This document shows positions 3,281 through 62,064 of a DNA stretch of 64,000 bases, in pieces. Positions within the stretch are counted from its first letter, which is position 1. Each line of letters opens with the position of its first letter. Below the pieces are notes generated by a model, which saw nothing but the letters and a program-made list of their open reading frames with translations, was not told the origin of the DNA and ran no database searches. The translations under genes were made by a program, and so were the position numbers. The stretch lies in assembly GCA_016188865.1 (NCBI GenBank), contig JACPGX010000002.1:2398-66397 (forward strand). Direction: 5' to 3'. Source of the DNA: Candidatus Nealsonbacteria bacterium (lineage in GTDB: Bacteria; Patescibacteriota; Minisyncoccia; Minisyncoccales; MHMH01).

Positions 3281-3810
3281 TAATATTGCAGCAAAGATCT
3301 TATTTTTTGCCCCTTAATATTTTTTCTTCCTTTTAAATAAGTCAACTCAATAAGAAAATTAACTCCCACAATTTTTCCCTTAAGCTGTTTGACTAGATCA
3401 ATAGCGGCTTTCATTGTTCCGCCGGTAGCTAAAACATCGTCAACAATGACAACTTTTTCTCCCGGCAGAATAGCATCTTCATGCATTTCAAGAACATTGC
3501 TGGCATATTCCAGAGAATATTCCCTGGAAACAGTTTTAGCCGGAAGCTTTCCTTTTTTTCTGACAATCGCTAACCCCGTCTTGAATTTATAAGCTGAAGC
3601 GGCAGCCAGTATAAAACCTCTAGCGTCAATGCCGACAATCTTATCAACTTTTTTCCCGGAATAAGGAGCAATCAAAAAATCAATCATTTTATGGAAAAGA
3701 TTCTTATCCTGCAGCAGGGGGGTGATATCTTTAAAATTAACTCCTTTATGCGGCCAATCGGGAATTTCCCTGATTTTAGATTTAATTTCCGAAAGAAGTT
3801 TTGTCCGCAT
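3280..3810 (-). CDS. apt: Adenine phosphoribosyltransferase
   Basis: 176 aa. VVIVDDVLATGGTMKAAIDLV PRTase motif and typical Apt N-terminus (IPDWPHKGVNFKDITPLL). Confidence 0.9.
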   Translation of the reverse strand: MRTKLLSEIKSKIREIPDWPHKGVNFKDITPLLQDKNLFHKMIDFLIAPYSGKKVDKIVGIDARGFILAAASAYKFKTGLAIVRKKGKLPAKTVSREYSLEYASNVLEMHEDAILPGEKVVIVDDVLATGGTMKAAIDLVKQLKGKIVGVNFLIELTYLKGRKNIKGQKIRSLLQY

Positions 3811-4898: not shown

Positions 4899-5706
4899 CT
4901 TTAAGAATGTTTCGACAGGGGCAAACCCTCTGAGAAGGAATTTTTAGTATTGATTGCTTAAGAATCTCCCGAAGTTTCACCATATTTGTCTTCATCGTGT
5001 TTAAAATTCTTTCCCAACTGACTTCTCTCCCCGTCTTCCAGACATCCCAATCGGTAACGCTGGCAAGAGATGAATAACAAATTTCCAATTCTCTAGCTAA
5101 ATTGACTTCGGGGATTAGGGTCATACCAACGATATCGGCGAAATTCCTGAAAAACTTTGATTCCGCCTTAGTTGAAAATCTTGGTCCTTCGATGCAAATG
5201 TAAGTTCCATTTTGATGAATAGAAATATTTAATTTTTTACCTGCTTGGTAAAGAAGTCTAGCTAATTCAGGACAAAAAGGATCGGCCGATGTAATATGAA
5301 CTGTCTCCTTGTCGTAAAAAGTATAATCTCTCTTTTTGGTAAAATCGATGAACTGGTCAGAAGTAACAATATCTCCCGGCTTAAATTCCCTTTTAAGGGA
5401 ACCGACTGCTCCGACTCCAATAATTCTTTCCACTCCCAACTTCTTCAAAGCCCAGATATTCGCTCTTTGGGGAACTTTGTGTGGAGGAAACTGGTGTTTT
5501 TTCCCATGGCGGGATAAAAAAGCGACCTTCTTCCCGTGAAAATCAGCGATGGTAATCGGCGATGATGGATAACCGAAAGGAGTTTTGATATTAACCTCTT
5601 TAATCTTTTTGAAGAATTTCGGATCCTCTAATCCGCTTCCGCCAATAATGGCAATTTTGGGATTAGATTTTAAATAATTTTCTGGCATTTTGAGTTGTGG
5701 CATCAA
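4888..5706 (-). CDS. mtnP: S-methyl-5'-thioadenosine / purine nucleoside phosphorylase
   Basis: PNP/MTAP family pattern (IAIIGGSGL ... FLSRHG..H...P..V..RANIWALK.LGV). The start may be a few codons downstream, since the ORF overlaps tatD. Confidence 0.8.
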   Translation of the reverse strand: MMPQLKMPENYLKSNPKIAIIGGSGLEDPKFFKKIKEVNIKTPFGYPSSPITIADFHGKKVAFLSRHGKKHQFPPHKVPQRANIWALKKLGVERIIGVGAVGSLKREFKPGDIVTSDQFIDFTKKRDYTFYDKETVHITSADPFCPELARLLYQAGKKLNISIHQNGTYICIEGPRFSTKAESKFFRNFADIVGMTLIPEVNLARELEICYSSLASVTDWDVWKTGREVSWERILNTMKTNMVKLREILKQSILKIPSQRVCPCRNILKDAK

Positions 5707-6400
5707 TTATTTCTTCATAACTCAAATTTTTAACTTTGGCAATCTTTTCTGCAATATATTTTGTATAAATAGGCTCATTGCGACCGAATACTGAAGGAGG
5801 CGTTAAATATGGGCAGTCCGTTTCCAGTAAAATTTTATCTAAAGGAGCTTTGGCAATAACCTCGTCTAAATTCATCTTGAAAATTATTCCATTAAATCCC
5901 AAATATAGCCCCATATCGATATATCTTTGCGCCTCTCCCCATGTTCCGGTAAAACAATGGATGACTCCTGTTCGAATGTTCGATTGTTCGAGTGTTCGAA
6001 TGAGATCGTTGTGGGCTAATCGGCAATGGAAAATTACCGGCAAATTCACTTCTCTTGCCAACTCCACCTGCCTCAGCAAGACTTCTTTTTGTTTCTCCTT
6101 AAAAGGCAAATATTCTGCTTTATAGTCAAGGCCAATTTCTCCAACTGCCACCGCTGAATTAGCCAGTTCTTTATATTTTTGGTATTCAAACTCCTCTCCC
6201 ACATGAATCGGATGGAGCCCCACTGCCGCATATACCCCTTCTTTATATTTTCCAGCTATTTCCACCGCGCGCTTGCTCGTGGTGTATTGCGAGCCGACAT
6301 TAATCATCCAAATATTTTCAGCCAAAGACCGCCGAATCACTTCTTCGGAATCATCTTTATAGGCGTTGAAATTAACGTGAGCGTGAGTATCGATAATCAT
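5663..6400 (-). CDS. tatD: TatD-family metal-dependent hydrolase
   Basis: MIIDTHAHVNF, GEIGLDY, HCR, HCFTG and ETDCPYL motifs. Confidence 0.85.
   Translation of the reverse strand: MIIDTHAHVNFNAYKDDSEEVIRRSLAENIWMINVGSQYTTSKRAVEIAGKYKEGVYAAVGLHPIHVGEEFEYQKYKELANSAVAVGEIGLDYKAEYLPFKEKQKEVLLRQVELAREVNLPVIFHCRLAHNDLIRTLEQSNIRTGVIHCFTGTWGEAQRYIDMGLYLGFNGIIFKMNLDEVIAKAPLDKILLETDCPYLTPPSVFGRNEPIYTKYIAEKIAKVKNLSYEEIIDATTQNARKLFKI
5969..6000. repeat. Octanucleotide tandem repeat (TGTTCGAN x4) inside tatD
   Basis: tgttcgaa tgttcgat tgttcgag tgttcgaa. Encodes IRTLEQSNIRTG in the variable linker of TatD. Confidence 0.9.
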
Positions 6401-7192: not shown

Positions 7193-8344
7193 CTAAAGTT
7201 TGCCAACTAAAATATCTTTTCTGATTTTTTGCATTAAACCGAGAGTGAAATAAAGATTATGAATAGTGGCTAATCTATAATATAGGAGTTCTTTGGCTCT
7301 AAAAAGATGCGATAAATAAGCCCGGGTGAAATTTTGACAGGTATAACAACCGCACTTCTTCTCAATGGCATGGAAATCTTTAATATATCGGGAATTTCCT
7401 ATATTCAAGCGGCCATTTTTTATCAGTAAAGTTCCTCTTCTGGCTAATCTTGTGGGCCAGACGCAATCAAATAGATCCATACCGTGCTTTACGCAATTTT
7501 CCAAATCTTCCGGCCGGCCTATACCCAAAAGATGGCGAGGTTTTTCTTCAGGCAATAATGGCGTAATCCACTTTAAAATTTTAAACATGTCTTTTTGTGT
7601 TTTTCCCAAAGAACCGCCAATGCCAATGCCATCAAAAGGCAAGGATGAAATGAATTTAGTGCTTTCTTCTCTTAAATCTTTATACTCTCCGCCTTGGATT
7701 ATCCCAAACAAAGCCTGTTCCCGCTTTTTTTTAACCTTTAAGCACCGCAAGGCCCAATTATGCGTTTTTTTTAAAGATTTTTTAGTATATTCATAATCAG
7801 CTAAAGGAGAGGTGCATTCGTCAAAGGCAAAAATAATATCGGCTCCCAAATCTTCTTGTATTTTAATGGATTTTTCCGGAGTAAAAATATGCTTTGAGCC
7901 GTCTAAATGAGAGGTAAATTCTACGCCATCGTCAGTAATTTTTACCAATTTAAGAGGTCCGACCTCCCGAGGAGGTCGGACCTCCTCATATCCCGGAAAC
8001 CACCCAATTTTTCCTATCTGGTGTACCTTGCCCCAGCCTAAAGAAAAAACTTGAAAACCTCCGCTGTCAGTAACCATCGGTCCCGGCCAGTTCATGAATT
8101 TATGGAGCCCGCCGGCTTTTTTTATAACATCCGCTCCCGGTCTCAAATAAAGATGATAAGTATTGGCTAAAATAATTTCGGCTCCCAAATTTTTCAAGTC
8201 TTCGGGCGTTAAACTCTTAACGCTGGCTTGCGTAGCTACTGAAACAAAAGCAGGAGTTTCAATCCTGCCGTGAGGCGTCTCTAAAATACCAGCTCTCGCC
8301 CAAGACTTCTTAGATTTTTTAACAATTTTAAATCTAAATTGCAT
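7193..8344 (-). CDS. tgt: Queuine tRNA-ribosyltransferase (tRNA-guanine transglycosylase)
   Basis: TPAFVSVATQASVK, VTDSGGFQVFSL and the C-terminal Zn motif CGCYTC. Confidence 0.9.
   Translation of the reverse strand: MQFRFKIVKKSKKSWARAGILETPHGRIETPAFVSVATQASVKSLTPEDLKNLGAEIILANTYHLYLRPGADVIKKAGGLHKFMNWPGPMVTDSGGFQVFSLGWGKVHQIGKIGWFPGYEEVRPPREVGPLKLVKITDDGVEFTSHLDGSKHIFTPEKSIKIQEDLGADIIFAFDECTSPLADYEYTKKSLKKTHNWALRCLKVKKKREQALFGIIQGGEYKDLREESTKFISSLPFDGIGIGGSLGKTQKDMFKILKWITPLLPEEKPRHLLGIGRPEDLENCVKHGMDLFDCVWPTRLARRGTLLIKNGRLNIGNSRYIKDFHAIEKKCGCYTCQNFTRAYLSHLFRAKELLYYRLATIHNLYFTLGLMQKIRKDILVGKL
7954..7985. repeat. GC-rich palindromic element (short form), in-frame inside tgt
   Basis: GAGGTCCGACCTCC-cga-GGAGGTCGGACCTCC. 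Read on the minus strand it encodes EEVRPPREVGPLK. Confidence 0.85.
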
Positions 8345-9754
8345 TTAAATTCGAGGAAATAACGGCTGGCTTTTTTGCGTTTTCAATTGTTCTAAAATTT
8401 TTTCCGATGTTTTGGGCAAAAATGGTTCCAGTAATTTGGCTATTTCGCCTACGGCAAATAACAAATTGCCGATTACTTCTTTTTGGTTTTTGCTCTCTAC
8501 CCATGGTCTTTCTTTTTCAATATATTTATCGCACCAGCTAATTATTTCCCATATAGCCATCAACGCCTCATTAAACTCAAATCCATCAAGAAAACTATAG
8601 CATTCTTTTTGGGTTTTATTGATGAGTGATTTTAAATTTTTATTTGTAATTTTGGTTTTTGAATTTTTAATTTCTAATTTAGCAGCCATAGTAATAACTC
8701 TGGCAACGAGGTTACCCAGACCGCTTGCCAAATCGGCATTATATCTTCCCTCAAACTTTTCCTGTGTAAAGTCTCCGTCTTCCGTCGGCGGAATTTCCCG
8801 CAAAAGAAAATATCTTACTGCATCTGTTCCGTATTTTTTAATCAGTTCAAACGGGTCAACCACATTTCCCAACGACTTAGACATTTTCTGCCCGGCAACC
8901 GTAATAAAACCGTGGACAAAAATAGTTTTTGGCAAAGCTAATCCCAAAGATAAAAGCATTCCCGGCCAAATTAAAGAATGAAATTTTTGGATATCTTTGC
9001 CTATGCACTGGACATCTGCCGGCCAACGCCCGGGAGCGCCCGATAGATAATTTATTAACGCGTCAGCCCAAACATATATCGTTTGGGTTTCGTCGTCGGA
9101 AACTGGAATTCCCCACTTTAAATCTTTTCTGGGTCGCGAAAAACTGATATCCTCTAAACCATCTTTTAGGAAACTTAGCATCTCATTCTTTCTAGATGCG
9201 GGGATTATTTTAATTTTATCTTTCTTCAAAATTTCTTCAATATTTTTAGAATATTTTGAAAGCCGGAAAAAATAATTTTCTTCCTCCACAACTTCCGGTT
9301 CTTTCAAGTGAATGCGGCACCTTCCATCAATTAAATCTTTTTTCGTAATAAAAGCTTCGCAGCCCACGCAATACAAACCTTTATACTTTTTCTTATAAAT
9401 ATCTCCATTTTCCAGCAATTTTAACCATACCCCCTGAACTTTTGACCAATGTTTTTCCCTATCAGTGGTTCTGATAAAGTAGTCATTTGACAAATTAAAA
9501 ATTCTTGTCAATTCTCTAAATTTTTCAGAAACCATGTCAGTAAAATCTTCTGGAATTTTCCCGGCTTGCTCGGCAGCTTTTACCACTTTGGCTCCGTGTT
9601 CATCGGTGCCGGTTAAAAAGAAAACATCCTCGCCTAGAATACGGTGATATCTTGCTAAAACATCCGCTTGGACGATTTCCAATGCATATCCTAAATGCGG
9701 GAGAGCGTTGACATATGCTATGCTGGTTGTGATATAAAACTTTTTTCTTGCCAT
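8345..9754 (-). CDS. metG: Methionyl-tRNA synthetase (short form, no C-terminal tRNA-binding domain)
   Basis: HIGH-region variant NALPHLGYA, KMSKSLGN, and CxxC...C knuckle. Confidence 0.95.
   Translation of the reverse strand: MARKKFYITTSIAYVNALPHLGYALEIVQADVLARYHRILGEDVFFLTGTDEHGAKVVKAAEQAGKIPEDFTDMVSEKFRELTRIFNLSNDYFIRTTDREKHWSKVQGVWLKLLENGDIYKKKYKGLYCVGCEAFITKKDLIDGRCRIHLKEPEVVEEENYFFRLSKYSKNIEEILKKDKIKIIPASRKNEMLSFLKDGLEDISFSRPRKDLKWGIPVSDDETQTIYVWADALINYLSGAPGRWPADVQCIGKDIQKFHSLIWPGMLLSLGLALPKTIFVHGFITVAGQKMSKSLGNVVDPFELIKKYGTDAVRYFLLREIPPTEDGDFTQEKFEGRYNADLASGLGNLVARVITMAAKLEIKNSKTKITNKNLKSLINKTQKECYSFLDGFEFNEALMAIWEIISWCDKYIEKERPWVESKNQKEVIGNLLFAVGEIAKLLEPFLPKTSEKILEQLKTQKSQPLFPRI
8644..8678. 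repeat. Degenerate heptanucleotide tandem repeat inside metG
   Basis: ttgtaat tttggtt tttgaat ttttaat ttctaat. Encodes LEIKNSKTKITNKNLK. Confidence 0.5.
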
Positions 9755-10924: not shown

Positions 10925-11953
10925 TTAGAGCACTACTGCTTTTTCTTCCTTTTTTTTCTTTAAGAAGTCTTTTAAAAATTCAAAGAAAATCCCGGCAACC
11001 GGAATAGCCAAAAGCGCTCCCATCAAACCCCATAACTTTCCTCCGACCAATAAAGAAACCAGCACTAAAACCGGCGGCAAGCCGATGAATTTTTTAGCCA
11101 AGATTGGGGTTAAAATATTGCCTTCAATTTGCTGGATTAATATAAAGGCAACTGTGAAAAACACTGCCTTTAGCCAAACTGCAGAGGCCACGATAACTGC
11201 AATAACTGCTCCCGAGATAATTGGACCGACAATAGGTATAAAATTAAAAACACCTGCAAAAATACCGAAAGAAACCGCGTAGTCGATATTCAAAACGTAG
11301 CAAATCAAAAAAGTCATTAATCCAATAAAGAAAGAGGTCAAAATTCTCGTGCCAAACCAACCAGAAACCTTCCATTGGCTCTTTGCTAAAATATTCAAAA
11401 CTACAGCTTCATACTTCTTCGGAGTAAGAGCTCGTATTACTTTCTCAAACCCCTCTTCTTCCAAAGAAAGAAAGATGGCAATAGATAGAATGGTGAGAGT
11501 AGAAAATAATCCGCCGAAGATAACCCCTATGGCATTAAACACGCTGGAAGAAACAGCAGAAAGCTCGCTTTCCATAGTTTTAGTAAATTTCTCAAAACTT
11601 TCAAAAGCTTCTATGCCCAAGCCCCTAAAAGTTGGAGACACTCTTTCAAAATAAACAGGGAAAGATTGGGAAAACTGTTTAATTTCTGCAACAAAAATGG
11701 GGGCTACTAAATAAATAGAAATACCCACGATACCGAAAATAGCCACATAAACTAAAATCACGGCTAAAGCCCGAGGCATAAATTTCTTCAAAAAATTAAT
11801 AGCCGGATTAAATAGAATAGAAATAATAAGAGCAAAAATAACCCAAATTAAAATATCCCTTATTAAATAAAGAAGGTAGAAAATGCCTCCGGCAATGGCA
11901 ATCTTTAAAATTGTCTGCCAGGAAATATCTAATACTTTTGTATCATCAGCCAT
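10925..11953 (-). CDS. AI-2E family transporter (PerM/UPF0118-like permease)
   Basis: 342 aa with about 8 TM segments and a family-typical C-terminal half (FNFIPIVGPIISG ... QQIEGNILTP). Confidence 0.7.
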   Translation of the reverse strand: MADDTKVLDISWQTILKIAIAGGIFYLLYLIRDILIWVIFALIISILFNPAINFLKKFMPRALAVILVYVAIFGIVGISIYLVAPIFVAEIKQFSQSFPVYFERVSPTFRGLGIEAFESFEKFTKTMESELSAVSSSVFNAIGVIFGGLFSTLTILSIAIFLSLEEEGFEKVIRALTPKKYEAVVLNILAKSQWKVSGWFGTRILTSFFIGLMTFLICYVLNIDYAVSFGIFAGVFNFIPIVGPIISGAVIAVIVASAVWLKAVFFTVAFILIQQIEGNILTPILAKKFIGLPPVLVLVSLLVGGKLWGLMGALLAIPVAGIFFEFLKDFLKKKKEEKAVVL

Positions 11954-13304: not shown

Positions 13305-14897
13305 TTATTTTTCCGGCAAAGAAGGCAGCAGCCGCTCCAGCCGATCAGTCAGTTCCTTTAACTGCCCAATCACTTGTCGAAGCTCTTTTTGAGAAAGTTT
13401 ATCAACCGTCTGATTGATTATCTGGCCTGTCGCATCAATGATTGGGCTTTCGCCAATGCCCGCTATGCGTCCCTTCTTTTCTCCAAGCAGGAAACCGATC
13501 ATTTCTTGGTAATTGGAGCCCAAGCTTAACACTTCGTTTGTCTGGGAATTGACCAATACCGTATCAACAATGCCGGCAAAAGTATTGGGCGTCAGGGTGA
13601 ACATCCAGTACAGAACGCCCTGTTTCATTATTGGCCTGGGCTCGAGCACCAGAATTTGATCCCACTTAAATGCTGGATAAGCCCGGACAACGTAATCGCG
13701 AGCCCTTATTGGACCGATTAAAGTGCTATCTCCCGACATGGTTAACAACTCAACTTTACCAGTAATGGCATCTACGAAAAATAGTCGATAGATACCCTGG
13801 GCTCCCCAAGCATTAGCCGCAACCACCCACTTCTGGCCAAGATCAGTTGGCAAAAGAAATGGCATCTCATTAACCAAGTAGCCAGTTTCTGAAGGACCGA
13901 CTGAAGGAATTTCGATCTGATCTTGATGCTTAAAAATGGTGTTAGCAATGCCGTTTTTGTAAGCATAGGCCTCAACGTAAAGCCTGGCCAATTTCTCAGG
14001 AAATATGCGCGCATCTTTTAACAAATGATTTTGCATAGCCTCTTGAGGAGTTAAGTCTTCAACCGAGCCGTTGCTGTGGACCAGGAAGACTCCGCCGAAA
14101 TGAGGCACCATCACAGGAAACTTAAACGAATAATTCAAATATGGGGCTACCGCTACGACCTCTTCTTTTTCGCTCTGGATGTAATAAATCTCGGTGACTT
14201 CAGACCAGTATCTTTTCTGCCGCAGCTTCCAAAGAATGTGATCGCTGCCCAGCATGCCTTCGCCGATCGTCATTTTTTGCCGAATAGTTGAAACATCACC
14301 TCGGCTATCAACAATCGTGAAGCCGTCGCTATTGCGCAATGCTTCATTCCAAAAGCCCCGTGGCGCACGAGTCAAAATCCAGTGCATTTCATTTCCTTTA
14401 ATAACCGGATCGGCGTCTACATGCTGAACCATCGGCTCCTGAAGACGATTTTCGCCATACCGCCAAGCAACTTCCAGGGGTAGGTAACGAACAGCAGTTG
14501 TATTTGGCATAATTTCGACCTCTTCATAAGCTAGAGATTTATAAATATTCTGGCGAGTCCAGGAAGAATTGAAAGAGCCGAAAATTATAAGCCAAATGAC
14601 AAAACAAATTAAAAAATAAACGCCAGATGCTCCCCAGCTCTTTACTATCAAGCCAATGAACGCAGCGCTAATCAAAATTAGCGACAAAACTATCCAAAAA
14701 CCGAGGACACCATAAAACAGATAAAAGAACATCGGCTGGAAGAACGGCAACCAAGCAATCAGCCAGAAAAGAGTCAAAACAAGAGAAACAAAAAACAATA
14801 TAACCGATGTTTTTTTATCGTAATTGGAGATCGTCGCCCAAAAAGCAATCCAAGTGATGCAACTCATGAGAAAGACCACCAAAGCAAAAACTATCAT
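13305..14897 (-). CDS. Hypothetical membrane protein (N-terminal TM bundle, large soluble domain, C-terminal coiled-coil-like tail)
   Basis: 530-aa uninterrupted ORF. N-terminal hydrophobic helices. No family recognised. Confidence 0.5.
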   Translation of the reverse strand: MIVFALVVFLMSCITWIAFWATISNYDKKTSVILFFVSLVLTLFWLIAWLPFFQPMFFYLFYGVLGFWIVLSLILISAAFIGLIVKSWGASGVYFLICFVIWLIIFGSFNSSWTRQNIYKSLAYEEVEIMPNTTAVRYLPLEVAWRYGENRLQEPMVQHVDADPVIKGNEMHWILTRAPRGFWNEALRNSDGFTIVDSRGDVSTIRQKMTIGEGMLGSDHILWKLRQKRYWSEVTEIYYIQSEKEEVVAVAPYLNYSFKFPVMVPHFGGVFLVHSNGSVEDLTPQEAMQNHLLKDARIFPEKLARLYVEAYAYKNGIANTIFKHQDQIEIPSVGPSETGYLVNEMPFLLPTDLGQKWVVAANAWGAQGIYRLFFVDAITGKVELLTMSGDSTLIGPIRARDYVVRAYPAFKWDQILVLEPRPIMKQGVLYWMFTLTPNTFAGIVDTVLVNSQTNEVLSLGSNYQEMIGFLLGEKKGRIAGIGESPIIDATGQIINQTVDKLSQKELRQVIGQLKELTDRLERLLPSLPEK

Positions 14898-17989: not shown

Positions 17990-18622
17990 TTATTCATGTA
18001 TCTTTATACTATACCATTCTGAGATATTTTTTAACAACACTAAATGATTGACCATGATTTTCAGTTTGAATAGAATATTCCAATCTTTTTTTAAAATTAA
18101 TTTAATAATTTTAGCGATATCGCAATCTACTTTTTTCCCCCGGACAGAGCATCCTGCAATATCGGGGTAATATCCCAAAATGGCGACTAGATTCCAAAAA
18201 AAATAATAATACATCAGCCTTAAATCATAAATCTTAAATCTTAAATCATTCATTTTACCTAAAACCTCGTTTAGGAGTTGCCAGATTTTTTCGTCTTTTT
18301 CTTCTTTGTGGGCCAATTCATCAAGAATTCTGACAATCCCATGAACAACATGCAATTTCCCCAAATTTCTTCTGATATTGATAAAGTTTTCTATCAAAAT
18401 AGCATCTGTAAGTGTTTTATGAGTTTTTCCCTGTATGAATTCAATTTCGGATAAATAAAAAAGCCCGGCGCCGCCTCTCAGCTTTGAGTTAATTTTTCTA
18501 ATTGCTTTTCCTAAAACTTTTATTTTCCCGAAATCTTCCGTATAAACAGTGAAAAGCTGATCCGCTTCTTTAAGATCAGCTTTTCTCAAAAAAATACCCC
18601 GAGTTCTGTAATGAACTGCCAT
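17990..18622 (-). CDS. recO: DNA repair protein RecO
   Basis: N-terminal OB-fold pattern typical of RecO (GIFLRKADLKEADQLFTVYTEDFGKIKVLGKAIRK). Confidence 0.8.
   Translation of the reverse strand: MAVHYRTRGIFLRKADLKEADQLFTVYTEDFGKIKVLGKAIRKINSKLRGGAGLFYLSEIEFIQGKTHKTLTDAILIENFINIRRNLGKLHVVHGIVRILDELAHKEEKDEKIWQLLNEVLGKMNDLRFKIYDLRLMYYYFFWNLVAILGYYPDIAGCSVRGKKVDCDIAKIIKLILKKDWNILFKLKIMVNHLVLLKNISEWYSIKIHE
18221..18248. repeat. Heptanucleotide tandem repeat (TAAATCW x4) inside recO
   Basis: taaatca taaatct taaatct taaatca. Encodes NDLRFKIYDLRL. Confidence 0.85.
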
Positions 18623-19098: not shown

Positions 19099-22000
19099 TT
19101 ATAATTTCTTCACCGCAAGACTAAGTTTTTGCCGATCAACATTTATTTCCTTCTCGCCTTTACCCGGCTTAAAATCCTTAGCCTTAATTTCAGATAAAAT
19201 AAACTTTTTATTTTTACCTAAAATTCTATTTAATTCTGACGCACCGGAATACTGGACAAAAATTTTATCTTTTGGCTTAAAGCCGGCTTCCTTTCTCATC
19301 TCATTAATCTGGCGAATAACTTCTCGAATAATTCCCTCTTCTTTAAGCTCTGGGGTAATTTTCGTATCCAATATTAAAATATTGCTGAAAATAATTTTCT
19401 TGACGTTAACTTCTTCTTTTATGAACTCTGATAAACCTTTCTCCATTTTCTCGGGAATCACAAGAGAAGTTAGGGGTTGGCGAACTTTTATGCCAGTCTT
19501 AGCTCTTTCGGCCAAGGCCAAAGCCACAATTTCCCTGACCCTCGTCATTTTCTGATTTAATTTTTTATTAATCAATTTTTTATTAGCCTTGGGCCAATCA
19601 GCCAAGTGGATACTGCGAGAACGCTTCTCGTAATGACGAGAAACGTTCTCGTAAATTTGCTCGGAGAGGAAAGGAATAAAGGGGGCGGTTAATTTTGAAA
19701 CCGTTTGAAGAACCAAGGTCAGAGTGCCGACAGCTTCGTTAAAACGCTTGCGCGACCTTCTGATATACCACAAAGACAGATCGTTAACCACAAAATCTTC
19801 AATAGCTCTGGCCGCTCCTGTTACGTCGTATTTATCAAGATTATAAGTAGTTTCTGCAATTAACTCATTTAATCGGGAAACCACCCACTTATCTAATAAG
19901 TTTTTAGTTTTTAGTTTATAGTTTGTAGTTTTAATATTATAAGTTTTGTAGAAAGTAAAACAATTCCACAAAATCAAAATAAACTTTTTCAAAGCTTGGT
20001 CTATGTCTTTTTCTGTAAAAAGTTTTGAATCGCCGGACTGATTAACTGTGTAAAAATACCACCTAACAGCGTCGGCGCCATATTTTTCAACAATATACCA
20101 AGGGTCAACGACATTGCCCCTTGATTTTGACATTTTCTCTCCTTTCTCGTCTAAAACATGGCCAGTAGAAATTACATTTTTATAGGGCGCGCCTTTTCCC
20201 AAAAGTGTGGAAACCGCCAAAAGTGTATAGAACCAGCCGCGAGTCTGATCGATAGCCTCTGAAATATAATCAGCTGGAAATATGGCTCCGGAAGCGAACG
20301 GCATACTGCCCGAATCAAACCAAACATCGCAAACTTCCGAAACCCTTGCCATTTTTTCTCCGCATTTAGAGCAATAGAATTTAATTTCATCTATATAAGG
20401 CCGATGAAAATCAACCCTCCCCTCTTTATCCAGGGGTAAATTTTTAAAATCCAGCTTGCGCCACTCTCCGGTCTTTATGTCTTTTTTAGCTAATTTTATT
20501 TTCAATAATTTTTCGTCAGACAAACCCTTGACTGCTCCTTCTAAAAGCCACAATGGATCGCAATGGCTGACAATTAAAATAGTTTTATTTTTATGCTTTT
20601 GATCAATATCGCTTATAAAGCTCATCATTCTTTTTCTAACTTCGCCCCAATTTTCCCCGCCTTCGGGCTTTCTCCCGTAAAAACTGTCTACGCTTTTCGG
20701 AAAATCTTTAAAATATTTTTCTTTCTTTTTACCCTGATAAATGCCAAAATTCATATCTCTTAAGCGCATATCAGAAATTATTTCTGCGCCAAGTTCTTCA
20801 TTAACGAGCTGGGCTGTCTGACGGGTTCTGTTCATATCTGAAAAATAAATTATATCTATTTTCTTTATTTTAAGTTCTTTAGCGGCTTTTCTTACATCGC
20901 TCTCCCCACCCTTGCTTAATAATATGGGACTTTTTTCCGGCCAAGGATAAATATAATCTCCATTATTAACCTGATGGTTATTTTGGCCGTGCCGCATAAT
21001 ATAATATTTATTGGCTGAAAATTTTTGACCCAATAAATCATTTTTACCACCGATAACTTCCTTGAGCCCGCAACTCTGACAGCTCCAAATCGGCAAAGGT
21101 GTTCCCCAATATCTCTCTCGGGAAAAAGCCCAATCTTTCAGTTCTTTTAGCCACTCGCCGAATCTCCCGTCTTTTAAATGCGAGGGCACCCAATTGATTT
21201 TTTGGTTGTTGCCGATCAGGTCTTTTTTTACGTCCTGCATTTTTATAAACCAGCTCTCTTTGGCGTAATAAAGAAGCGGCGATTTGCAGCGCCAGCAGAA
21301 AGGATAATCATGCTCGTATAATTCTTCTTTAAAAAGAACTCCCCTCTCCTGCAGGTCTTTAATAATCAACGGGTCCGCATCTTTAACAAACATTTCATTC
21401 CACTCATAATCCGGCGTTATCATTTTGCCTTCTTCATTAACGGTCACTAATACTGGCAAATTATTCTCTTTTCCTACCTTCATATCATCCTCGCCAAAAG
21501 CCGGAGCAATATGCACCAAACCTGTACCGTCTTCCATGGAAACAAAATCGCCGGCAACTACGCGATATTTCGATGTCCGACCTCCCGACAAATCTGACGG
21601 GAGATCGGACATCCCAAATATCCGTTCATATTCTAATCCAATTAAGTCCCTACCCTTAAATTCTCCAACGATTTCTCCAACTATGCCGACTGGCTTCATT
21701 CTATCTTTAGCTAAAATCAGATATTCCTCACCAACTTTTATTTTTACATAAGTAAATTCCGGGTTTACCGCTACCGCAACATTCCCGGGCAAAGTCCAGG
21801 GCGTCGTCGTCCACACGAGCAAAGAAGAGTCCTTGAATTTTAAATTTTTAATCTTAAATCTTACATAAATTGAATTTTCTTCAATTCTTTTGTACCCCTG
21901 CGCCACTTCATGGGAAGACAAACTTGTCCCACACCTCGGACAATACGGCACTACTTTGTAATCTTTGTACAAAAGCCCTTTTTGATAAATTTGTTTTACT

Positions 22001-22467
22001 ATCCACCATAAAGTTTCGATATATTCATTTTCATAGGTGACATAAGGGTGCTCCATATCTAACCAATAGCCAATCCTTTCGGTTAATTTCTCCCAATCTC
22101 GCTTGTATTGCCAAACCGATTCTTTGCATTGCTTATTGAATTCAGCGATACCATATCTTTCAATGTCTTTTTTATTTTTTAAGCCCAGCTTTTTCTCAAC
22201 TTCCAGTTCTACGGGCAAACCATGGGTATCCCAGCCGGCTTTTCTCAAAACCCTAAAACCCTGCATGGTCTTATAGCGGCAAATAATATCTTTGAAGGCG
22301 CGGCTTAAAACATGATGAATACCCGGCTTCCCATTAGCCGTCGGCGGTCCCTCGTAAAACACAAAATCCCGCGCCCTAGCGCGCTGTTTGATGCTTTTCT
22401 CAAAAATCTTCTTTTCTTTCCAGAACTTCAATATCTCTTCTTCTTTCTGGGAAAAATTTAACTCCAT
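19099..22467 (-). CDS. ileS: Isoleucyl-tRNA synthetase (type 2) with an inserted histidine-phosphatase domain
   Basis: HIGH (PPTANGKPGIHHVLSR), KMSKS, editing-domain TTPWTLPGN and WFDSG motifs. A PGAM-type domain sits at about aa 486-686 (YIMRHGQ ... IVSHCDPL). Confidence 0.95.
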   Translation of the reverse strand: MELNFSQKEEEILKFWKEKKIFEKSIKQRARARDFVFYEGPPTANGKPGIHHVLSRAFKDIICRYKTMQGFRVLRKAGWDTHGLPVELEVEKKLGLKNKKDIERYGIAEFNKQCKESVWQYKRDWEKLTERIGYWLDMEHPYVTYENEYIETLWWIVKQIYQKGLLYKDYKVVPYCPRCGTSLSSHEVAQGYKRIEENSIYVRFKIKNLKFKDSSLLVWTTTPWTLPGNVAVAVNPEFTYVKIKVGEEYLILAKDRMKPVGIVGEIVGEFKGRDLIGLEYERIFGMSDLPSDLSGGRTSKYRVVAGDFVSMEDGTGLVHIAPAFGEDDMKVGKENNLPVLVTVNEEGKMITPDYEWNEMFVKDADPLIIKDLQERGVLFKEELYEHDYPFCWRCKSPLLYYAKESWFIKMQDVKKDLIGNNQKINWVPSHLKDGRFGEWLKELKDWAFSRERYWGTPLPIWSCQSCGLKEVIGGKNDLLGQKFSANKYYIMRHGQNNHQVNNGDYIYPWPEKSPILLSKGGESDVRKAAKELKIKKIDIIYFSDMNRTRQTAQLVNEELGAEIISDMRLRDMNFGIYQGKKKEKYFKDFPKSVDSFYGRKPEGGENWGEVRKRMMSFISDIDQKHKNKTILIVSHCDPLWLLEGAVKGLSDEKLLKIKLAKKDIKTGEWRKLDFKNLPLDKEGRVDFHRPYIDEIKFYCSKCGEKMARVSEVCDVWFDSGSMPFASGAIFPADYISEAIDQTRGWFYTLLAVSTLLGKGAPYKNVISTGHVLDEKGEKMSKSRGNVVDPWYIVEKYGADAVRWYFYTVNQSGDSKLFTEKDIDQALKKFILILWNCFTFYKTYNIKTTNYKLKTKNLLDKWVVSRLNELIAETTYNLDKYDVTGAARAIEDFVVNDLSLWYIRRSRKRFNEAVGTLTLVLQTVSKLTAPFIPFLSEQIYENVSRHYEKRSRSIHLADWPKANKKLINKKLNQKMTRVREIVALALAERAKTGIKVRQPLTSLVIPEKMEKGLSEFIKEEVNVKKIIFSNILILDTKITPELKEEGIIREVIRQINEMRKEAGFKPKDKIFVQYSGASELNRILGKNKKFILSEIKAKDFKPGKGEKEINVDRQKLSLAVKKL
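19901..19935. repeat. Heptanucleotide tandem repeat (TTTNTAG-like x5) inside ileS
   Basis: tttttag tttttag tttatag tttgtag ttttaat. Encodes YNIKTTNYKLKTKNL. Confidence 0.75.
21572..21613. repeat. Palindromic element (diverged full-length copy), in-frame inside ileS
   Basis: GATGTCCGACCTCCCGACAAATCTGACGGGAGATCGGACATC. Encodes MSDLPSDLSGGRTS on the minus strand. Confidence 0.8.
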
Positions 22468-23196: not shown

Positions 23197-23769
23197 TTAT
23201 ATTTTAAAAATTTCCCTTAGAAAATCATCATTTTCTATATTCTCGGCGGTGATTAAACGAACTTCGCGCTGTCCCAACCCAAAGAACTCCCTCAATAACT
23301 CTACCTCATCTTTGCAGGGATAAGGATTAATCCAAACGCTTTTCTGCAAAGGCAAAAAACCTAATTCCCTTAATTTTCCCCTGAAAGCATTCCGTTGTAG
23401 ATTTTTAAGCTGAATGATATCAAAAATTACTATTCGCCATTTTTTATCCCATTTTTTCGGCTTATTTATATTCAAACTGTCAATTTGAAACCTGCCGGCC
23501 AATTTTCTCCCTTTTTCCGTCAAAGAAATATAAATTTGATGATTTTTATTTATAATTTTAATACATCCTTGCCTTCTAAGATTATAAAAGGTGTCGGAAA
23601 CTTTTTTCGCTTTATACTTGTCTTTATTTTGAAATCCTTTAATAATATTCGTGGCAAAATGGGGAGAGGTAGCAGCGATGCAAACCGCACCGGCAACGGC
23701 CAGCCACTTAAAAACATCTTTGGTGATTTCTGATTTCGGTTTTCTAAAATAATATTTATATTTACTCAT
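23197..23769 (-). CDS. PaaX-like / Cas2-fold domain protein with N-terminal hydrophobic segment and wHTH-like middle (paralogue 1)
   Basis: KWRIVIFDI...LRNAFRGKLRELGF.PLQKSVWINPY resembles the Cas2-like ferredoxin-fold core of PaaX-family proteins. Paralogue at 62063..62635. Confidence 0.6.
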   Translation of the reverse strand: MSKYKYYFRKPKSEITKDVFKWLAVAGAVCIAATSPHFATNIIKGFQNKDKYKAKKVSDTFYNLRRQGCIKIINKNHQIYISLTEKGRKLAGRFQIDSLNINKPKKWDKKWRIVIFDIIQLKNLQRNAFRGKLRELGFLPLQKSVWINPYPCKDEVELLREFFGLGQREVRLITAENIENDDFLREIFKI

Positions 23770-23901: not shown

Positions 23902-25413
23902 CTACATTTTCTCCGGAGCGGAAATACCCATAAGAGAAAGGGTATTCTTTAAAACGATTTGGGTTGCTAACGACAGGGCTAAGCGGGCTTGAGTTAAATT
24001 TTTATCCTCGGAAATCACGTGGCAATCTCTGTAAAATTGATGGAAAACAGTCGCTAACTCCATTGCGTATTGAGGCAACCTTTGAAGCTGGTAATCCTTG
24101 GCAGTATCTTCAATAACTTCCGGCAATTTAATCAGCTGTTTAATTAAATCCAATTCACTTGCATGCGTTAATAATTTCACGTTTTCGGATTTCGGATTTC
24201 GGATTTCGGATTTCGCCAAAATACTGCATATTCTTGCGTGAGCGTATTGAACATAATATACCGGGTTTTTCTCCGACTGCTCTTTTGCCAAATCCAAATC
24301 AAAATTCAAATGGCTGTCATGGCTGCGGGTTAAAAAAAAGAATCGGGCAACATCCAATGAAACTTCTTCGATAAGTTCATCAATAGTTACGAATACTCCA
24401 GTCCTTTTAGACATTTTAACTTCTTTGCCAGCCTCAATTAACCTTACTAACTGATAGACAATCGGAGTAATTTTTTCTTTATCATATCCTAATGCCTGTG
24501 CTGCGGCCTTCAAGCGAGGGACGTAGCCGTGATGCTCTGCCCCTAAAAAAATTACTAACCAATCAAATCCTCTTCCAAATTTATTTTTTAAATAAGCGAT
24601 GTCAGAAAGGAAATAAGTTTCTTCTTCATAGGTCGTTTTCTTTTCCGCCCTAACCAAAACTCGATCTTTATCGTCGCCAAATTCCGTAGATTTAAACCAA
24701 ATAGCTCCATCTTTTTCATAAACAAGGCCTTTTTTCTTTAAAAAACCGGAAACTTGTTTTGCTTCTTTGGGATATAAAGATGTTTCATAAAACCATTTGT
24801 CAAATTTAATTCCCATTATTTTTGCCGTATTTTCTATTTTTTTAACAATATACTTTACTGCTTTATCAATGTCTTTTTCGCCTTTTTTAATCAACTTTTC
24901 GGTATATTCATTTTTATAGCCCTGCTTTCCCTCAAGAGTATCCTGCAGAACCTTAATTTGCCTGCCCCGGTCGTTAACATAGTATTCACGCCAAACCCTG
25001 TATCCGGCTTTATTAAAAACATTGGCTAAAACATCTCCGCAAAAGCCGCCTCGCGCATTGCCAACGTGAAGAGGGCCGGTAGGATTGGCTGAAATAAATT
25101 CCACGTTTACTTTTTTATTTTGGCCAATTTTTAAATTACCGAAATTATTTTTTTGTTTTAAAATTTCTCTGACCTGCTTTTGCAGATACTCTTTGGAAAT
25201 AAAAAAGTTAATGAAGCCGGGGCCGGCTGCTTCAACTTTTTCAAAAAGATTGGATTTCAGTTTGTTGATTATTTCTTTCGGGTCTTTTTTTAATCTAAAG
25301 GCGATGTTGGTTGAATAATCTCCATATTTTTTATCTTCCGGAGTTTCCAGTCTGACATCCTCTTCTCCGGTTGCTTTTTGAACCAATTTTACTATTTCTT
25401 GACGTATCATCAC
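23902..25413 (-). CDS. argS: Arginyl-tRNA synthetase
   Basis: SANPTGPLHVGNARG (HIGH region), the MSKRTG variant of KMSKS, and C-terminal YVQYAHARICSI. Confidence 0.95.
   Translation of the reverse strand: MMIRQEIVKLVQKATGEEDVRLETPEDKKYGDYSTNIAFRLKKDPKEIINKLKSNLFEKVEAAGPGFINFFISKEYLQKQVREILKQKNNFGNLKIGQNKKVNVEFISANPTGPLHVGNARGGFCGDVLANVFNKAGYRVWREYYVNDRGRQIKVLQDTLEGKQGYKNEYTEKLIKKGEKDIDKAVKYIVKKIENTAKIMGIKFDKWFYETSLYPKEAKQVSGFLKKKGLVYEKDGAIWFKSTEFGDDKDRVLVRAEKKTTYEEETYFLSDIAYLKNKFGRGFDWLVIFLGAEHHGYVPRLKAAAQALGYDKEKITPIVYQLVRLIEAGKEVKMSKRTGVFVTIDELIEEVSLDVARFFFLTRSHDSHLNFDLDLAKEQSEKNPVYYVQYAHARICSILAKSEIRNPKSENVKLLTHASELDLIKQLIKLPEVIEDTAKDYQLQRLPQYAMELATVFHQFYRDCHVISEDKNLTQARLALSLATQIVLKNTLSLMGISAPEKM
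24183..24217. repeat. Heptanucleotide tandem repeat (TTTCGGA x4 plus 1 degenerate unit) inside argS
   Basis: tttcgga x4 then tttcgcc. Encodes AKSEIRNPKSEN. The same unit occurs in the archease gene. Confidence 0.9.
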
Positions 25414-39138: not shown

Positions 39139-40863
39139 TTATTTAAGATATTTTAACATTTTTTCCAGCGGCCAGCAATTGGCGATGTCTCCTTTCTCGG
39201 CCCAGCCCCTTCGGGCTTGGGCAACGCCAAATTCCATAAGTCTTAACTGATCTTTTCGGTGAGAATCGGTATTGATTATCATTTTAACGCCAACTTTCTT
39301 GGCTTTTCTGATATTTTGATCGTTTAAGTCCAATCTTTCCGGCCAAGCGTTAATTTCCAAAATAGTGCCGGTTTCTTTCGCCGCCCGCAAAACCTTATCA
39401 AAATCAATTTGATATTCATCTCTCTGTTTCAAAATTCTGCCGGTGGGATGGGAAATAATATCAACATTTGGATTTTGCATAGCCCGAATCATTCTTTCTG
39501 TCATTCTATTTTTATCAATTTTCATACTAGAATGAATACCGGCTATAACGTAATCCAGCTTTGCCAAAAACTCATCTTTGATATCTATTGAACCATCTTT
39601 TAAGATATTAGCCTCGCAGCCCTTCAAAATACGGAATTTTGAATTTTGAATTTTGAATTTTGAATTTAAATCATCTATTTCTTTATTGCGTTTTTCTAAC
39701 TGCTTCTCATCAAGGCCGTGCTCAATGTGCAAAGCCTTAGTATGATCGGCTATGCCAATGTACTCATAACCCAAAACCATAGCTGCTTTAGCCATTTCCT
39801 CAATAGAATCATCGCCTCCATCCCAATCAGAATGGGTATGGAGATCGCCCTTTATATCGTGGTGCCCAATGATTTTCGGCAACTTTCCGCTTAAAGCGGC
39901 CTCGATTTCTCCCTGATTTTCACGCAATTCCGGGTCAATCCACAAAAGACCCAGCATTTTATAAATTTCTTCTTCGGTTTGGCCGCCAATCATTTTATTG
40001 CCTTTGAACAATCCGTACTCTGATAATTTTAATCCCTTATCCATGGCAATGCGCCGAGTGGCAATATTGTGTTCTTTGGAACCGGTAAAATACTGCAAGG
40101 CAGAACCGTAAGACCTTTCGGGGACTACCCTGATGTCCATATCAAAACCATCTTTCATTCTCACCGATGCCTTGGTGGTTCCCTTGCCCCAAATTTTTAC
40201 TATACCCGGCAATTTAACAAAAAAATCTATCACTTTAGATGGATAATTAGAAATTGCCAAAAAATCAACGTCACCGATGGTTTCTTTTCTTCTTCTGGCA
40301 GAGCCAGCAATATCAGCTTGCTCCACCTCTCTTAAATTTTGCAATTTTTCTAAAACTTCTTTGGCTTTAAGTAAAATATCTCCTAAAAGAAATCTTCCCT
40401 TGCTTCTTTTTACGAAAGCGATTCCCTCTAAAATATTCTTTTCCGTCTTTTGGCCGAAACCGAATAAGGGAGCAATCTTATGGGCTTTAGCTGCTTTTTC
40501 TAAAGTCTTTAAATCTCTAATCCCTAATTTTTGATAGAGAACTTTTACTTTCTTGGGACCCACCCCCTCTACGGAAATAAGCTCTTCCAAATTCAATGGA
40601 AGCCGTTTCTTGAATTGCTCATAATGTTTTATTTTTCCAGTTTTCAAATATTCCTCTATGGCCTTGGCAAGGCCTTCGCCGACACCGGTAATTTCTTTTA
40701 AGGCTTCAATACCTCCCCTTTTGTAAATCTCCTCAACGTCCTCTTCTGTCGATTCCAAACCGATAGCCGCCTTCCGGTAAGCGTAGGGCTTAAAAGCCAC
40801 CTCATCCATCTCAAGATAATCGGCTATTCTATAGAATATTTTAGCTATTTCTTGGTTAACCAT
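39139..40863 (-). CDS. polX: DNA polymerase X family protein with C-terminal PHP domain
   Basis: N-terminal HhH pattern (IAKIFYRIADYLE...FKPYAYRKAA), Pol beta-like core (GSARRRKETIGDVDFL), and PHP motifs (GDLHTHSDWDGG). Confidence 0.9.
   Translation of the reverse strand: MVNQEIAKIFYRIADYLEMDEVAFKPYAYRKAAIGLESTEEDVEEIYKRGGIEALKEITGVGEGLAKAIEEYLKTGKIKHYEQFKKRLPLNLEELISVEGVGPKKVKVLYQKLGIRDLKTLEKAAKAHKIAPLFGFGQKTEKNILEGIAFVKRSKGRFLLGDILLKAKEVLEKLQNLREVEQADIAGSARRRKETIGDVDFLAISNYPSKVIDFFVKLPGIVKIWGKGTTKASVRMKDGFDMDIRVVPERSYGSALQYFTGSKEHNIATRRIAMDKGLKLSEYGLFKGNKMIGGQTEEEIYKMLGLLWIDPELRENQGEIEAALSGKLPKIIGHHDIKGDLHTHSDWDGGDDSIEEMAKAAMVLGYEYIGIADHTKALHIEHGLDEKQLEKRNKEIDDLNSKFKIQNSKFRILKGCEANILKDGSIDIKDEFLAKLDYVIAGIHSSMKIDKNRMTERMIRAMQNPNVDIISHPTGRILKQRDEYQIDFDKVLRAAKETGTILEINAWPERLDLNDQNIRKAKKVGVKMIINTDSHRKDQLRLMEFGVAQARRGWAEKGDIANCWPLEKMLKYLK
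39634..39668. repeat. Heptanucleotide tandem repeat (GAATTTT x4 plus 1 degenerate unit) inside polX
   Basis: gaatttt x4 then gaattta. Encodes NSKFKIQNSKFRI. Confidence 0.9.
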
Positions 40864-60990: not shown

Positions 60991-61398
60991 TCAAACATCA
61001 AATAGCACGGTTGCTTCAAAAAGTCCATCTTTATTTTTACGAATATCTAATCCGTGATAAGTGACGGCCTTGATATCTTCGCCGAATATATCAACTTTAT
61101 GACCGGAGAGCCCGGCCTCCAATCCCGTATCAGAGAATTTCTTGAATTTTATTTTATCGTAAACCTCTTTGTTCGTTTGAATCAAATACAAAATCTCGTT
61201 CAAAAAATCCACCAACAACGCATTTAAATCCAATGATTTTACTTTGATGTTTCGGATTTCGGATTTCGTGCTTCGGATTTCCGGCCGAAGGCCGGCTATC
61301 ATTCCCAGCATCGCATTCAAAAACAGCTCTTCTTTGGTTTTAGCCCAAACCCTAATCTTAAAATCTCCTGTATGTTCTAAAACTGCATACTGCTTCAT
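60991..61398 (-). CDS. Archease (RtcB activator)
   Basis: LEHTGDFKIRVWAKTKEELF N-terminus and VTYHGLDI near the C-terminus. Confidence 0.85.
   Translation of the reverse strand: MKQYAVLEHTGDFKIRVWAKTKEELFLNAMLGMIAGLRPEIRSTKSEIRNIKVKSLDLNALLVDFLNEILYLIQTNKEVYDKIKFKKFSDTGLEAGLSGHKVDIFGEDIKAVTYHGLDIRKNKDGLFEATVLFDV
61250..61284. repeat. Heptanucleotide tandem repeat (TTTCGGA-type, 5 units) inside the archease gene
   Basis: tttcgga tttcgga tttcgtg cttcgga tttccgg. Encodes PEIRSTKSEIRNIK. Same unit as in argS. Confidence 0.85.
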
Positions 61399-62028: not shown

Positions 62029-62064
62029 AACGTACAATTCAAACCATGGTTTCAATCTTACGTT
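62029..62064. promoter_or_regulatory. CCATGG-type 36-bp palindrome (copy L2), overlapping the stop of PaaX-like paralogue 2
   Basis: AACGTACAATTCAAACCA|TGGTTTCAATCTTACGTT. Confidence 0.6.

Follow-up and report, generated by a model that had tools for sequence, protein, structure and literature searches.

Heptanucleotide simple sequence repeats (SSRs) were found in excess in particular lineages of prokaryotes by Mrazek et al. (2007), as summarised in PMC4692102, where the footprint or slippage of the polymerase was proposed to set the heptamer period. According to that summary, heptameric repeats had received no detailed study by then, and the cases it presents are intergenic; the cyanobacterial short tandemly repeated repetitive (STRR) sequences and the GGGAATC and GGGGA(C/T)T repeats of Xanthomonas and Nostoc are G-rich, quadruplex-capable and reach 26 copies (PMC4692102). 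A translated case is the (AAGACTC)n repeat at the 5' end of neuO, an accessory gene of Escherichia coli K1 and phage CUS-3, where 3 to 53 copies form an on/off switch that varies between and within strains, the full-length protein being made only if the repeat number is divisible by three, and 66% of genomes being out of frame (PMC13001214). An excess of heptamer SSRs in prokaryotes and one translated heptanucleotide repeat are therefore already known. Here, we describe heptamer arrays lying inside housekeeping genes of Candidatus Nealsonbacteria bacterium and of related Parcubacteria, among them the arrays of argS, which encodes the arginyl-tRNA synthetase (ArgRS), and of the archease gene. 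The window analysed is a stretch of 64,000 nucleotides (nt), positions 2,398 to 66,397 of contig JACPGX010000002.1 (assembly GCA_016188865.1).

A clade-wide excess of period-7 arrays

Arrays were called with Tandem Repeats Finder (TRF) and by direct reading of the window, and host genes were named by Pfam. TRF found nine short tandem arrays, of period 7 except for one of period 8 (Table 1), all inside minus-strand open reading frames (ORFs) and all translated through without a stop; their hosts are TatD, MetRS, RecO, IleRS (two arrays), a PaaX_M-like protein, ArgRS, PolX and archease. An earlier, sequence-only reading of the window had listed seven of these runs, every one of which was recovered by both approaches, and had overlooked the second ileS array and the weak array of the PaaX_M-like ORF. 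The peptide periodicity of 7 or 8 residues that it attributed to translation in all three phases is also as described, as in the argS, polX and tatD products.

The window archease is 100% identical to an NCBI protein of a Candidatus Nealsonbacteria metagenome-assembled genome (P0121). The best matches of the window ArgRS are uncultured Parcubacteria, at 71-72% identity, and comparison DNA was fetched around ArgRS homologues. The metagenome collection gave 80 Parcubacteria loci (884 kb, ArgRS 51-72% identical), and the genome collection gave 15 loci of the candidate phyla radiation (CPR; 235 kb) and, as a negative control, 65 non-CPR loci (1.27 Mb, mostly Bacillota). In the window, four lag-7 sites reach at least 23 of 28 self-matches, against none in 40 dinucleotide shuffles; at this threshold, periods 4-6, 9, 10, 12, 13 and 15-21 yield no site and periods 8, 11 and 14 one each, that of period 14 being the polX array again. 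The 80 Parcubacteria loci contain 62 strong period-7 arrays, three each of periods 8, 12 and 21, and zero or one of each other period, the 14 period-14 arrays being period-7 arrays counted again. Six more period-7 arrays were found in the 15 CPR loci, and none in the 65 non-CPR loci.

The sequence-only reading had proposed a comparison with shuffled sequence of like composition, and the excess of period-7 arrays proved large both in the window and in 1.2 Mb of CPR DNA. In the latter, set against five shuffles, TRF counted 66 period-7 arrays of 30-35 nt for 0.8 expected and 12 of 50-56 nt for none expected; short two-copy matches of 14-16 nt were near the shuffle level (162 observed, 130 expected). 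With head-to-tail copies beyond chance and an excess specific to the 7-nt unit size within a lineage, the arrays resemble prokaryotic heptanucleotide microsatellites, and they represent a clade-wide trait of these related Parcubacteria. Diffuse templated substitution at lag 7 throughout the genome was considered and rejected: once discrete arrays are masked, lag-7 autocorrelation falls to background, indicating a process that makes discrete arrays and not a diffuse periodicity.

Reading frame, protein context and concerted change

The arrays show no preference for ORFs over spacers, a comparison that the sequence-only reading had called for: 113 of 123 (92%) lie in stop-free frames of at least 100 codons, and such frames make up 0.906 of the DNA (p=0.76). 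Their orientation is strongly biased, the A-rich strand being the coding strand in 103 of these 113 arrays (91%), against 0.625 for random coding windows (p=7e-12). Unit bases are 54% A and 6% G, and the array peptides consist of 25% K, 12.5% N, 11% I, 10% S and 9% L. Units without a stop triplet in any phase account for 68% of arrays, compared with 48% expected from composition, and all 16 perfect arrays have stop-free units. In the recO array, whose unit contains TAA, the single copy that would put this triplet in frame reads TAT instead. The disruption of would-be in-frame stops in general (30/30) is circular, the arrays having been assigned to open frames, and is not used as evidence.

Among period-7 arrays, numbers fall off from a length of 14 nt until a minimum at 26-29 nt, rise to a first peak at 30-35 nt, stay low over 36-49 nt and reach a second peak at 50-56 nt, a pattern present inside and outside ArgRS. 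These peaks, at about 4.7 and 7.7 units, are 21 nt apart, i.e., 3 units or 7 codons. By contrast, the nine arrays outside long frames measure 21, 23, 25, 26, 32, 35, 39, 40 and 43 nt and are unquantised (Fisher p=0.024; small sample), which, together with the quantised lengths of the coding arrays, argues for selection on the reading frame. For the unit AAAATCA, the ArgRS loop has 22 residues in L147 (36-nt array; L numbers are our designations of comparison loci and contigs) and 28 in L161 (52-nt array), and it has 27 residues in L002, whose core array of 32 nt continues into additional, degenerate units. The warning that gain or loss of one unit would shift the frame of an essential gene agrees with this clustering of lengths in 1.2 Mb of related DNA, and the question raised with it, whether only multiples of three are tolerated, can be answered positively at the between-species level from the 21-nt spacing.

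Most arrays overwrite a native loop or hairpin and do not extend the protein, with net changes of 0 to +4 residues in the window. The archease array aligns without a gap to structures 4n2p and 1jw3 (net 0 residues), and the polX array adds 4 residues relative to both Thermus PolX 3au2 and array-less relatives. The ArgRS loop has 21 residues in the window, 19-20 in array-less Parcubacteria (net +1 for the window) and 22-26 in Bacillota. The second ileS array adds 2 to 4 residues relative to array-less relatives, and the region of the first is variable in length among relatives. The tatD array is 2 residues shorter than the segment of TatD 1j6o to which it aligns, without insertion, between two conserved core motifs. 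The runs, which the sequence-only reading had proposed to size as insertions against orthologues, are therefore mostly replacements. Nor do all of them fall in linkers, as it had stated: the tatD array corresponds to a structured segment of 1j6o, and the archease array is confidently predicted by AlphaFold as a strand-turn-strand beta-hairpin (pLDDT, the per-residue confidence of the model, about 89, with a mean of 93.6; strands at residues 39-45 and 49-54). In the AlphaFold 2 model of ArgRS, the array bridges two successive helices, taking in the last part of one, the intervening loop and the first part of the other. Over all arrays, the net change relative to array-less homologues has modes at 0, +1, +2, +4, +5, +7, +9 and +13 residues. 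Two simple models were discarded, since a plain insertion of 21 nt misfits some of these sites, and a pure in-place model misfits both the L111/L117 pair described below and ArgRS hot spot 1 (+7 residues).

Across many lineages, arrays recur at particular protein sites, with units that vary from one lineage to the next. In the ArgRS loop, these units include GAAATCC, AAATCAA, AAATTCA, AAAGTTC, ATACAAA, AAATCCC, AATTTTC and others. At one and the same length, the PolX site carries AAATTCA, AAATACT, ATACAAR, CAAATTG or GTTTCAC, a short array-less class being four residues shorter, and the RecO site carries GATTTAA, CAATTTA, TTTACAG or GGAAATT at one length in most relatives. The site of the second ileS array has GAAATCC units in L152. 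The archease segment is 17 residues long in 82 of 119 homologues, and its residue identity is 0.29 at lag 7 versus 0.05 at lags 6 and 8.

Comparison of contig pairs shows how the arrays change with distance. No array differs within pairs that are at least 99% identical (L106/107, L099/101, L162/163, L116/118), and pairs 94-96% identical have equal copy numbers and few substitutions. In pairs 84-89% identical, the units differ by changes found in most copies, as in L105 (ATACAAA x4.9) versus L106 (ATTCCAA/ATTCAAA), L134 (AAAATAC) versus L140 (AAATCTC) and L148 (AAAACTC) versus L151 (AAAATCC); such unit-wide differences point to concerted evolution. Copy-number steps of about three units were seen only between distant lineages (L147 versus L161), and the array at L111:6135 is missing from L117 as a whole 36-nt block.

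In the pooled arrays and their homologues, codon identity is 59% inside arrays versus 49% outside, a difference that the use of AAA for lysine could explain. Individual comparisons are more striking. The window ArgRS and that of L083 use the same codon at 10 of 10 array positions versus 157 of 327 outside (p=8e-4). Between the window archease and that of L164, whose proteins are 74% identical, the array and its adjoining hairpin form 48 identical nt, with 16 of 16 same codons versus 39 of 81 outside (p=4.5e-5), synonymous sites elsewhere being saturated. The imperfect unit AGC ACG of the archease array is also found in L167. As each unit base occupies codon positions 1, 2 and 3 in successive copies, homogenisation ties "synonymous" to nonsynonymous sites, and two perfect 7-nt arrays with the same peptide must have identical DNA, so that this identity needs no selection at the nucleotide level. 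The complete codon identity would thus follow from homogenisation of two perfect arrays with the same peptide. This reading does not cover the archease hairpin and the conserved imperfect unit AGC ACG.

Table 1. Tandem arrays of the window and the hairpin adjoining the archease array (positions in the window; residues are those of the ORF given).
Feature	Position	Strand	Repeat	Product
tatD array	5969..6002	-	period 8; coding TTCGAACA x4.2; 88% matches	LIRTLEQSNIRT, residues 133-144 of ORF 5663-6400
metG array	8629..8680	-	degenerate, period 7/14, 69-73% matches	KLEIKNSKTKITNKNLKS, residues 359-376 of ORF 8345-9754
recO array	18219..18249	-	GATTTAA x4.1, 90% (TRF 18221-18249)	NDLRFKIYDLR, residues 125-135 of ORF 17990-18622
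ileS array 1	19896..19951	-	AAAACTA-type units; TRF core 19899-19932, 4.9 copies, 88%	YKTYNIKTTNYKLKTKNLL, residues 839-858 of ORF 19099-22467
ileS array 2	21832..21863	-	TAAGATT/AAATTTA units, 4.6 copies, 80% matches	VRFKIKNLKFK, residues 202-212
Weak array	23724..23745	-	3.1 copies, AGAAATC/CGAAATC	near N-terminus of PaaX_M-like ORF 23197-23769
argS array	24183..24217	-	plus-strand TTTCGGA; coding (CGAAATC) x4.7 perfect (24183-24215, 100%) + one degenerate unit	KSEIRNPKSEN, residues 399-411 of ArgRS ORF 23902-25413
polX array	39634..39668	-	GAATTTT, coding (AAATTCA) x4.9, 100% (TRF 39634-39667)	NSKFKIQNSKF, residues 399-410 of ORF 39139-40863
archease array	61250..61284	-	GAAATCC type, 4.6 copies, 3 substitutions, 76% matches (TRF 61250-61281)	PEIRSTKSEIRN, residues 39-50 of ORF 60991-61398
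GC-only hairpin	61281..61295	-	CCGGCC-GAA-GGCCGG, directly adjoins archease array	

Shared units and the origin of the arrays

The common unit of the argS and archease arrays had been taken as an argument against local slippage and in favour of a copy-and-insert process or a common template. Sixty-three non-redundant arrays comprise 37 unit types, a narrow A-rich spectrum in which the commonest are AAAAATC (7 arrays) and AAATCCG, equivalent to GAAATCC (6 arrays). Two random arrays share a unit with a probability of 0.027, and at least one shared pair is expected among 8-9 arrays with a probability of 0.54-0.63; the common unit is therefore not significant and lends no support to that argument. 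Moreover, the argS unit GAAATCC is present at the same loop in L083, L113, L132, L133 and L097, and L164 and L167 have a counterpart of the archease array at the same hairpin. Since each array is present in orthologues at its own site, both were inherited in place, and copying from one gene to the other is not supported.

As for a common template, the idea finds no support in the case of argS and archease, and a weaker form of it is conceivable, in that GAAATCC and AAATTCA, the same two units, also appear to flag array-rich genomes at a great distance from the clade. (GAAATCC)x3 was found in 22 of 2.9 million viral contigs, most of them 56-68% GC, and 13 of the 22 loci carry at least two period-7 arrays (48 in 212 kb); a search of viral contigs for (GAAATCC)x4 gave no match. 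The array peptides read NPKSEIRNPKSE or, from the opposite strand, FRISDFGFRIS. (AAATTCA)x3 was found in 56 contigs, 21 of them with at least two arrays, compared with 15 contigs and no second array for the composition-matched control GACATCA and two contigs for the control CAAGTCA. With these two control units only, the counts provide a lead that GAAATCC and AAATTCA are typical of array-rich genomes in other lineages. The viral contigs L170-L191 each carry several AT-rich arrays of ~31-33 nt, much like those of the window in length (GAAATCC, AAAATCC/AAAATCG, GTTTCAC, CTCAGCA), lying in ORFs and at ORF ends. Among them, L182, a lambda-like phage encoding terminase gpA, a portal, ClpP protease and capsid E, stands out with ~10 arrays in 13.9 kb, e.g., at 3197-3298, 11539-11573 and 13760-13794.

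We propose that the arrays are probably frame-filtered heptanucleotide microsatellites, arising by slippage or template switching, tolerated by their hosts and without a function of their own. A process acting at the DNA level would create and homogenise tandem copies in a 7-nt register; the tandem structure and published precedent (PMC4692102) suggest that, in replication or repair, this happens by slipped-strand mispairing or template switching. Selection would then retain (i) lengths that preserve the frame, of about 4.7 or 7.7 units in steps of 21 nt, (ii) units that contain no stop triplet, or whose in-frame stop has been mutated, (iii) the A-rich strand as the coding strand, resulting in K/N/I/S/L-rich peptides, and (iv) arrays at protein sites tolerant of change. 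At such sites, the array would displace native sequence, presumably because total length is under stabilising selection, and would subsequently evolve in concert. Most likely, the arrays are thus a functionless, tolerated mutational hazard that also rewrites short protein segments.

Several observations weigh against this model. Simple slippage would not add three units at once to a seed of two units or less, and intermediates of 3-4 units would frameshift essential genes. The net length change relative to array-less homologues is not always 7 residues, and the array of L111 is present or absent as a whole block. Contigs at least 99% identical show no difference in copy number and thus provide no evidence of high slippage rates. 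GAAATCC arrays are nucleotide-identical across saturated lineages, which requires homogenisation together with peptide constraint, and the AT-rich units of array-rich phage contigs of 56-68% GC hint at a preference beyond composition. Finally, the model does not explain why the period is seven.

Part of this evidence would fit the insertion of cassettes or a common template, that is, a dedicated process writing blocks of about five units with a preference for GAAATCC and AAATTCA, which we regard as doubtful. Candidates for such a process would be a mobile mini-element, the footprints of transposons with a 7-bp target duplication, "stuttering" of a reverse transcriptase or polymerase at breaks, or filler synthesis during end joining. 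The characteristic 30-35 nt size across many genes and lineages, GC-rich phage contigs included, the 36-nt presence/absence in L111/L117, the variable amounts of native sequence replaced and the clustering of GAAATCC and AAATTCA arrays (13/22 and 21/56 loci with at least two, versus 0/15 for GACATCA) would be accounted for, as would the GC-rich hairpin mini-inserts lying within arrays and the LP[IR]RQAGE insert common to ArgRS and archease arrays (see below). However, 37 unit types in 63 arrays leave no place for a single template, and the arrays lack shared flanks, inverted termini and target duplications. The second length mode is exactly 21 nt higher and non-coding arrays are unquantised, unit-wide substitutions in orthologous arrays of close relatives fit evolution in place, argS and archease share their arrays with orthologues, and the control units scanned were two only. 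A more specific form is unlikely in our view: a sequence-biased generator, either an enzyme activity or a tiny element, would write cassettes of about five heptamers, preferring GAAATCC/AAATTCA, in a number of unrelated lineages, among them Parcubacteria and the hosts of 56-68% GC phages, overwriting short loops of essential proteins and possibly linked to the GC-rich hairpin mini-inserts. If true, such a generator would constitute a new way to diversify or erode protein segments, unlike ordinary slippage.

A selected function, whether of the peptide as a flexible or charged spacer or hairpin, or as a DNA/RNA binding, regulatory or phase-variation signal, appears very unlikely. It could explain the codon identity of the ArgRS and archease arrays across saturated lineages, the clade-wide persistence of arrays at the same sites and the confident archease hairpin, and neuO provides a precedent for a functional translated heptanucleotide repeat (PMC13001214). 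Yet units and peptides differ freely between lineages at one site, pooled codon identity is only slightly raised, and perfect repeats with the same peptide must share their DNA in any case. The arrays fold no better as RNA than shuffled sequence (z = 0.3 to 0.75), and an Rfam scan of the window returned only the bacterial tmRNA and one tRNA, with no match at the arrays, which excludes a function as RNA structure. On/off switching would be senseless in essential single-copy genes, and neither copy-number nor out-of-frame variants were seen between near-identical contigs; hence, a role as contingency loci is unlikely. As for chance low complexity or an assembly artefact in an AT-rich genome, its probability is practically negligible: a lysine-rich genome of 38-42% GC and the near-shuffle number of 14-16 nt matches would be in keeping with it, but no shuffle reached the observed arrays, the excess is confined to period 7, the arrays are shorter than a sequencing read, their ORFs stay open, and the same orthologous sites are hit in independent assemblies from many studies.

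If the arrays are indeed frame-filtered microsatellites, the small streamlined genomes of a major uncultured group would harbour about one frameshift-prone 7-nt array per 10-15 kb, as extrapolated from the window and related contigs. Many of them would sit in essential genes, representing a measurable mutational hazard as well as a means by which protein loops and hairpins change rapidly and in concert, and they would mark a clade-specific replication or repair behaviour. Three-phase reading leaves synonymous sites unfree, making the arrays a natural experiment on frame constraint in microsatellite evolution. In addition, recurrent low-complexity peptides such as KSEIRNPKSE and FRISDFGF confuse alignments and annotation.

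Neighbouring observations and comparison with known systems

A second ArgRS hot spot lies at residues ~66-77, where the N-terminal and catalytic domains meet, and its arrays mostly add 7 residues relative to array-less homologues (L003:10173-10207, L104:3448-3482, L114:287-321, L115:9571-9605, L134:5405-5439, L141:723-757, L143:3331-3365, L156:7981-8015); the window ArgRS has no array there. In relatives, the A-rich arrays of the ArgRS loop contain GC-rich hairpin mini-inserts of 21-63 nt, in frame and with termini shared across genes (L084:2887-2979, L116:5005-5100, L011:11252-11377, L140:4579-4662, L137:4563-4694, L081:11270-11398, L082:2538-2660). These termini are CTGCC-loop-GGCAG-GCAGGC in L084, L116 and L011, CCCCGAAGCAGA...CGCTACGGGGCA(G/A)GC in L140 and L137, and CC(C/A)(G/C)CCTACGC...GGCGGGCA(G/A)GC in L081 and L137. 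The peptide LP[IR]RQAGE follows "KS" in an ArgRS array (L084/P0002) and also occurs in an archease array (P0185), and P0195 has HAYRQAGE. Judged from their sequences, the mini-inserts look like a family of tiny elements targeting, or tolerated in, the arrays.

Very small dispersed repeats nested in the heptamer arrays of Nostoc were reportedly described by Elhai et al. in 2008, and Rickettsia palindromic elements (RPEs) are in-frame palindromic elements inside ORFs. Both have a formal likeness to the GC-rich mini-inserts of the relatives and not to the heptamer arrays. The latter differ from in-frame miniature mobile elements, whether RPEs, miniature inverted-repeat transposable elements or small dispersed repeats, in having no shared flanks or inverted termini, 37 unit types and no fold. 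In the window itself, the tgt ORF (7193-8344, minus strand) contains at 7956-7990 a perfect 16-bp GC-rich palindrome, GAGGTCCGACCTCC-CGA-GGAGGTCGGACCTC (-32.6 kcal/mol as RNA, z = -4.3), which falls where the Pfam TGT match of this queuine tRNA-ribosyltransferase gene splits in two; it may be an in-frame hairpin insert like those of the relatives.

Two further features concern the array-bearing genes. The IleRS ORF (19099-22467, 1122 aa) contains a complete His_Phos_1 domain (residues 489-662) between the halves of the synthetase catalytic-domain match, and L082, a relative, encodes a His_Phos_1 protein in a gene of its own (2920-3510) that separates argS from the next large gene. The window also encodes two paralogous small PaaX_M proteins (Cas2-like fold), one adjoining argS (23197-23769) and the other 0.7 kb from the archease gene (62063-62635); PaaX_M lies beside argS or the archease gene in relatives too (L082:553-1134, L168:4749-5207, L169:5423-6007).

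In full-text searches of the literature, we found no account of heptamer arrays in CPR/Patescibacteria, nor of frame-quantised ones in their essential genes. With neuO, the arrays share a coding 7-nt unit that is read in three phases and whose copy number sets the frame. Unlike the neuO repeat, they have 4-8 copies, are internal to housekeeping genes, are always in frame and are identical between near-identical contigs. No OFF alleles or copy-number heterogeneity of the neuO type were seen, the 113 coding arrays all lying in open frames of at least 100 codons and few close contig pairs being compared, and the hosts (ArgRS, IleRS, MetRS, RecO, PolX, TatD, archease) are not dispensable genes suited to adaptive switching. 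The STRR and GGGAATC repeats resemble them as lineage-specific tandem heptamers varying in length and sequence between related species, but those repeats are intergenic and G-rich, whereas the arrays described here are short and translated, with an A-rich coding strand. Their closest likeness to the prokaryotic heptamer SSRs at large is a lineage-specific excess of 7-nt units over other sizes; in contrast to the intergenic cases of PMC4692102, 92% of them lie in ORFs, essential genes included, with about 4.7 or 7.7 copies and at recurrent orthologous sites.

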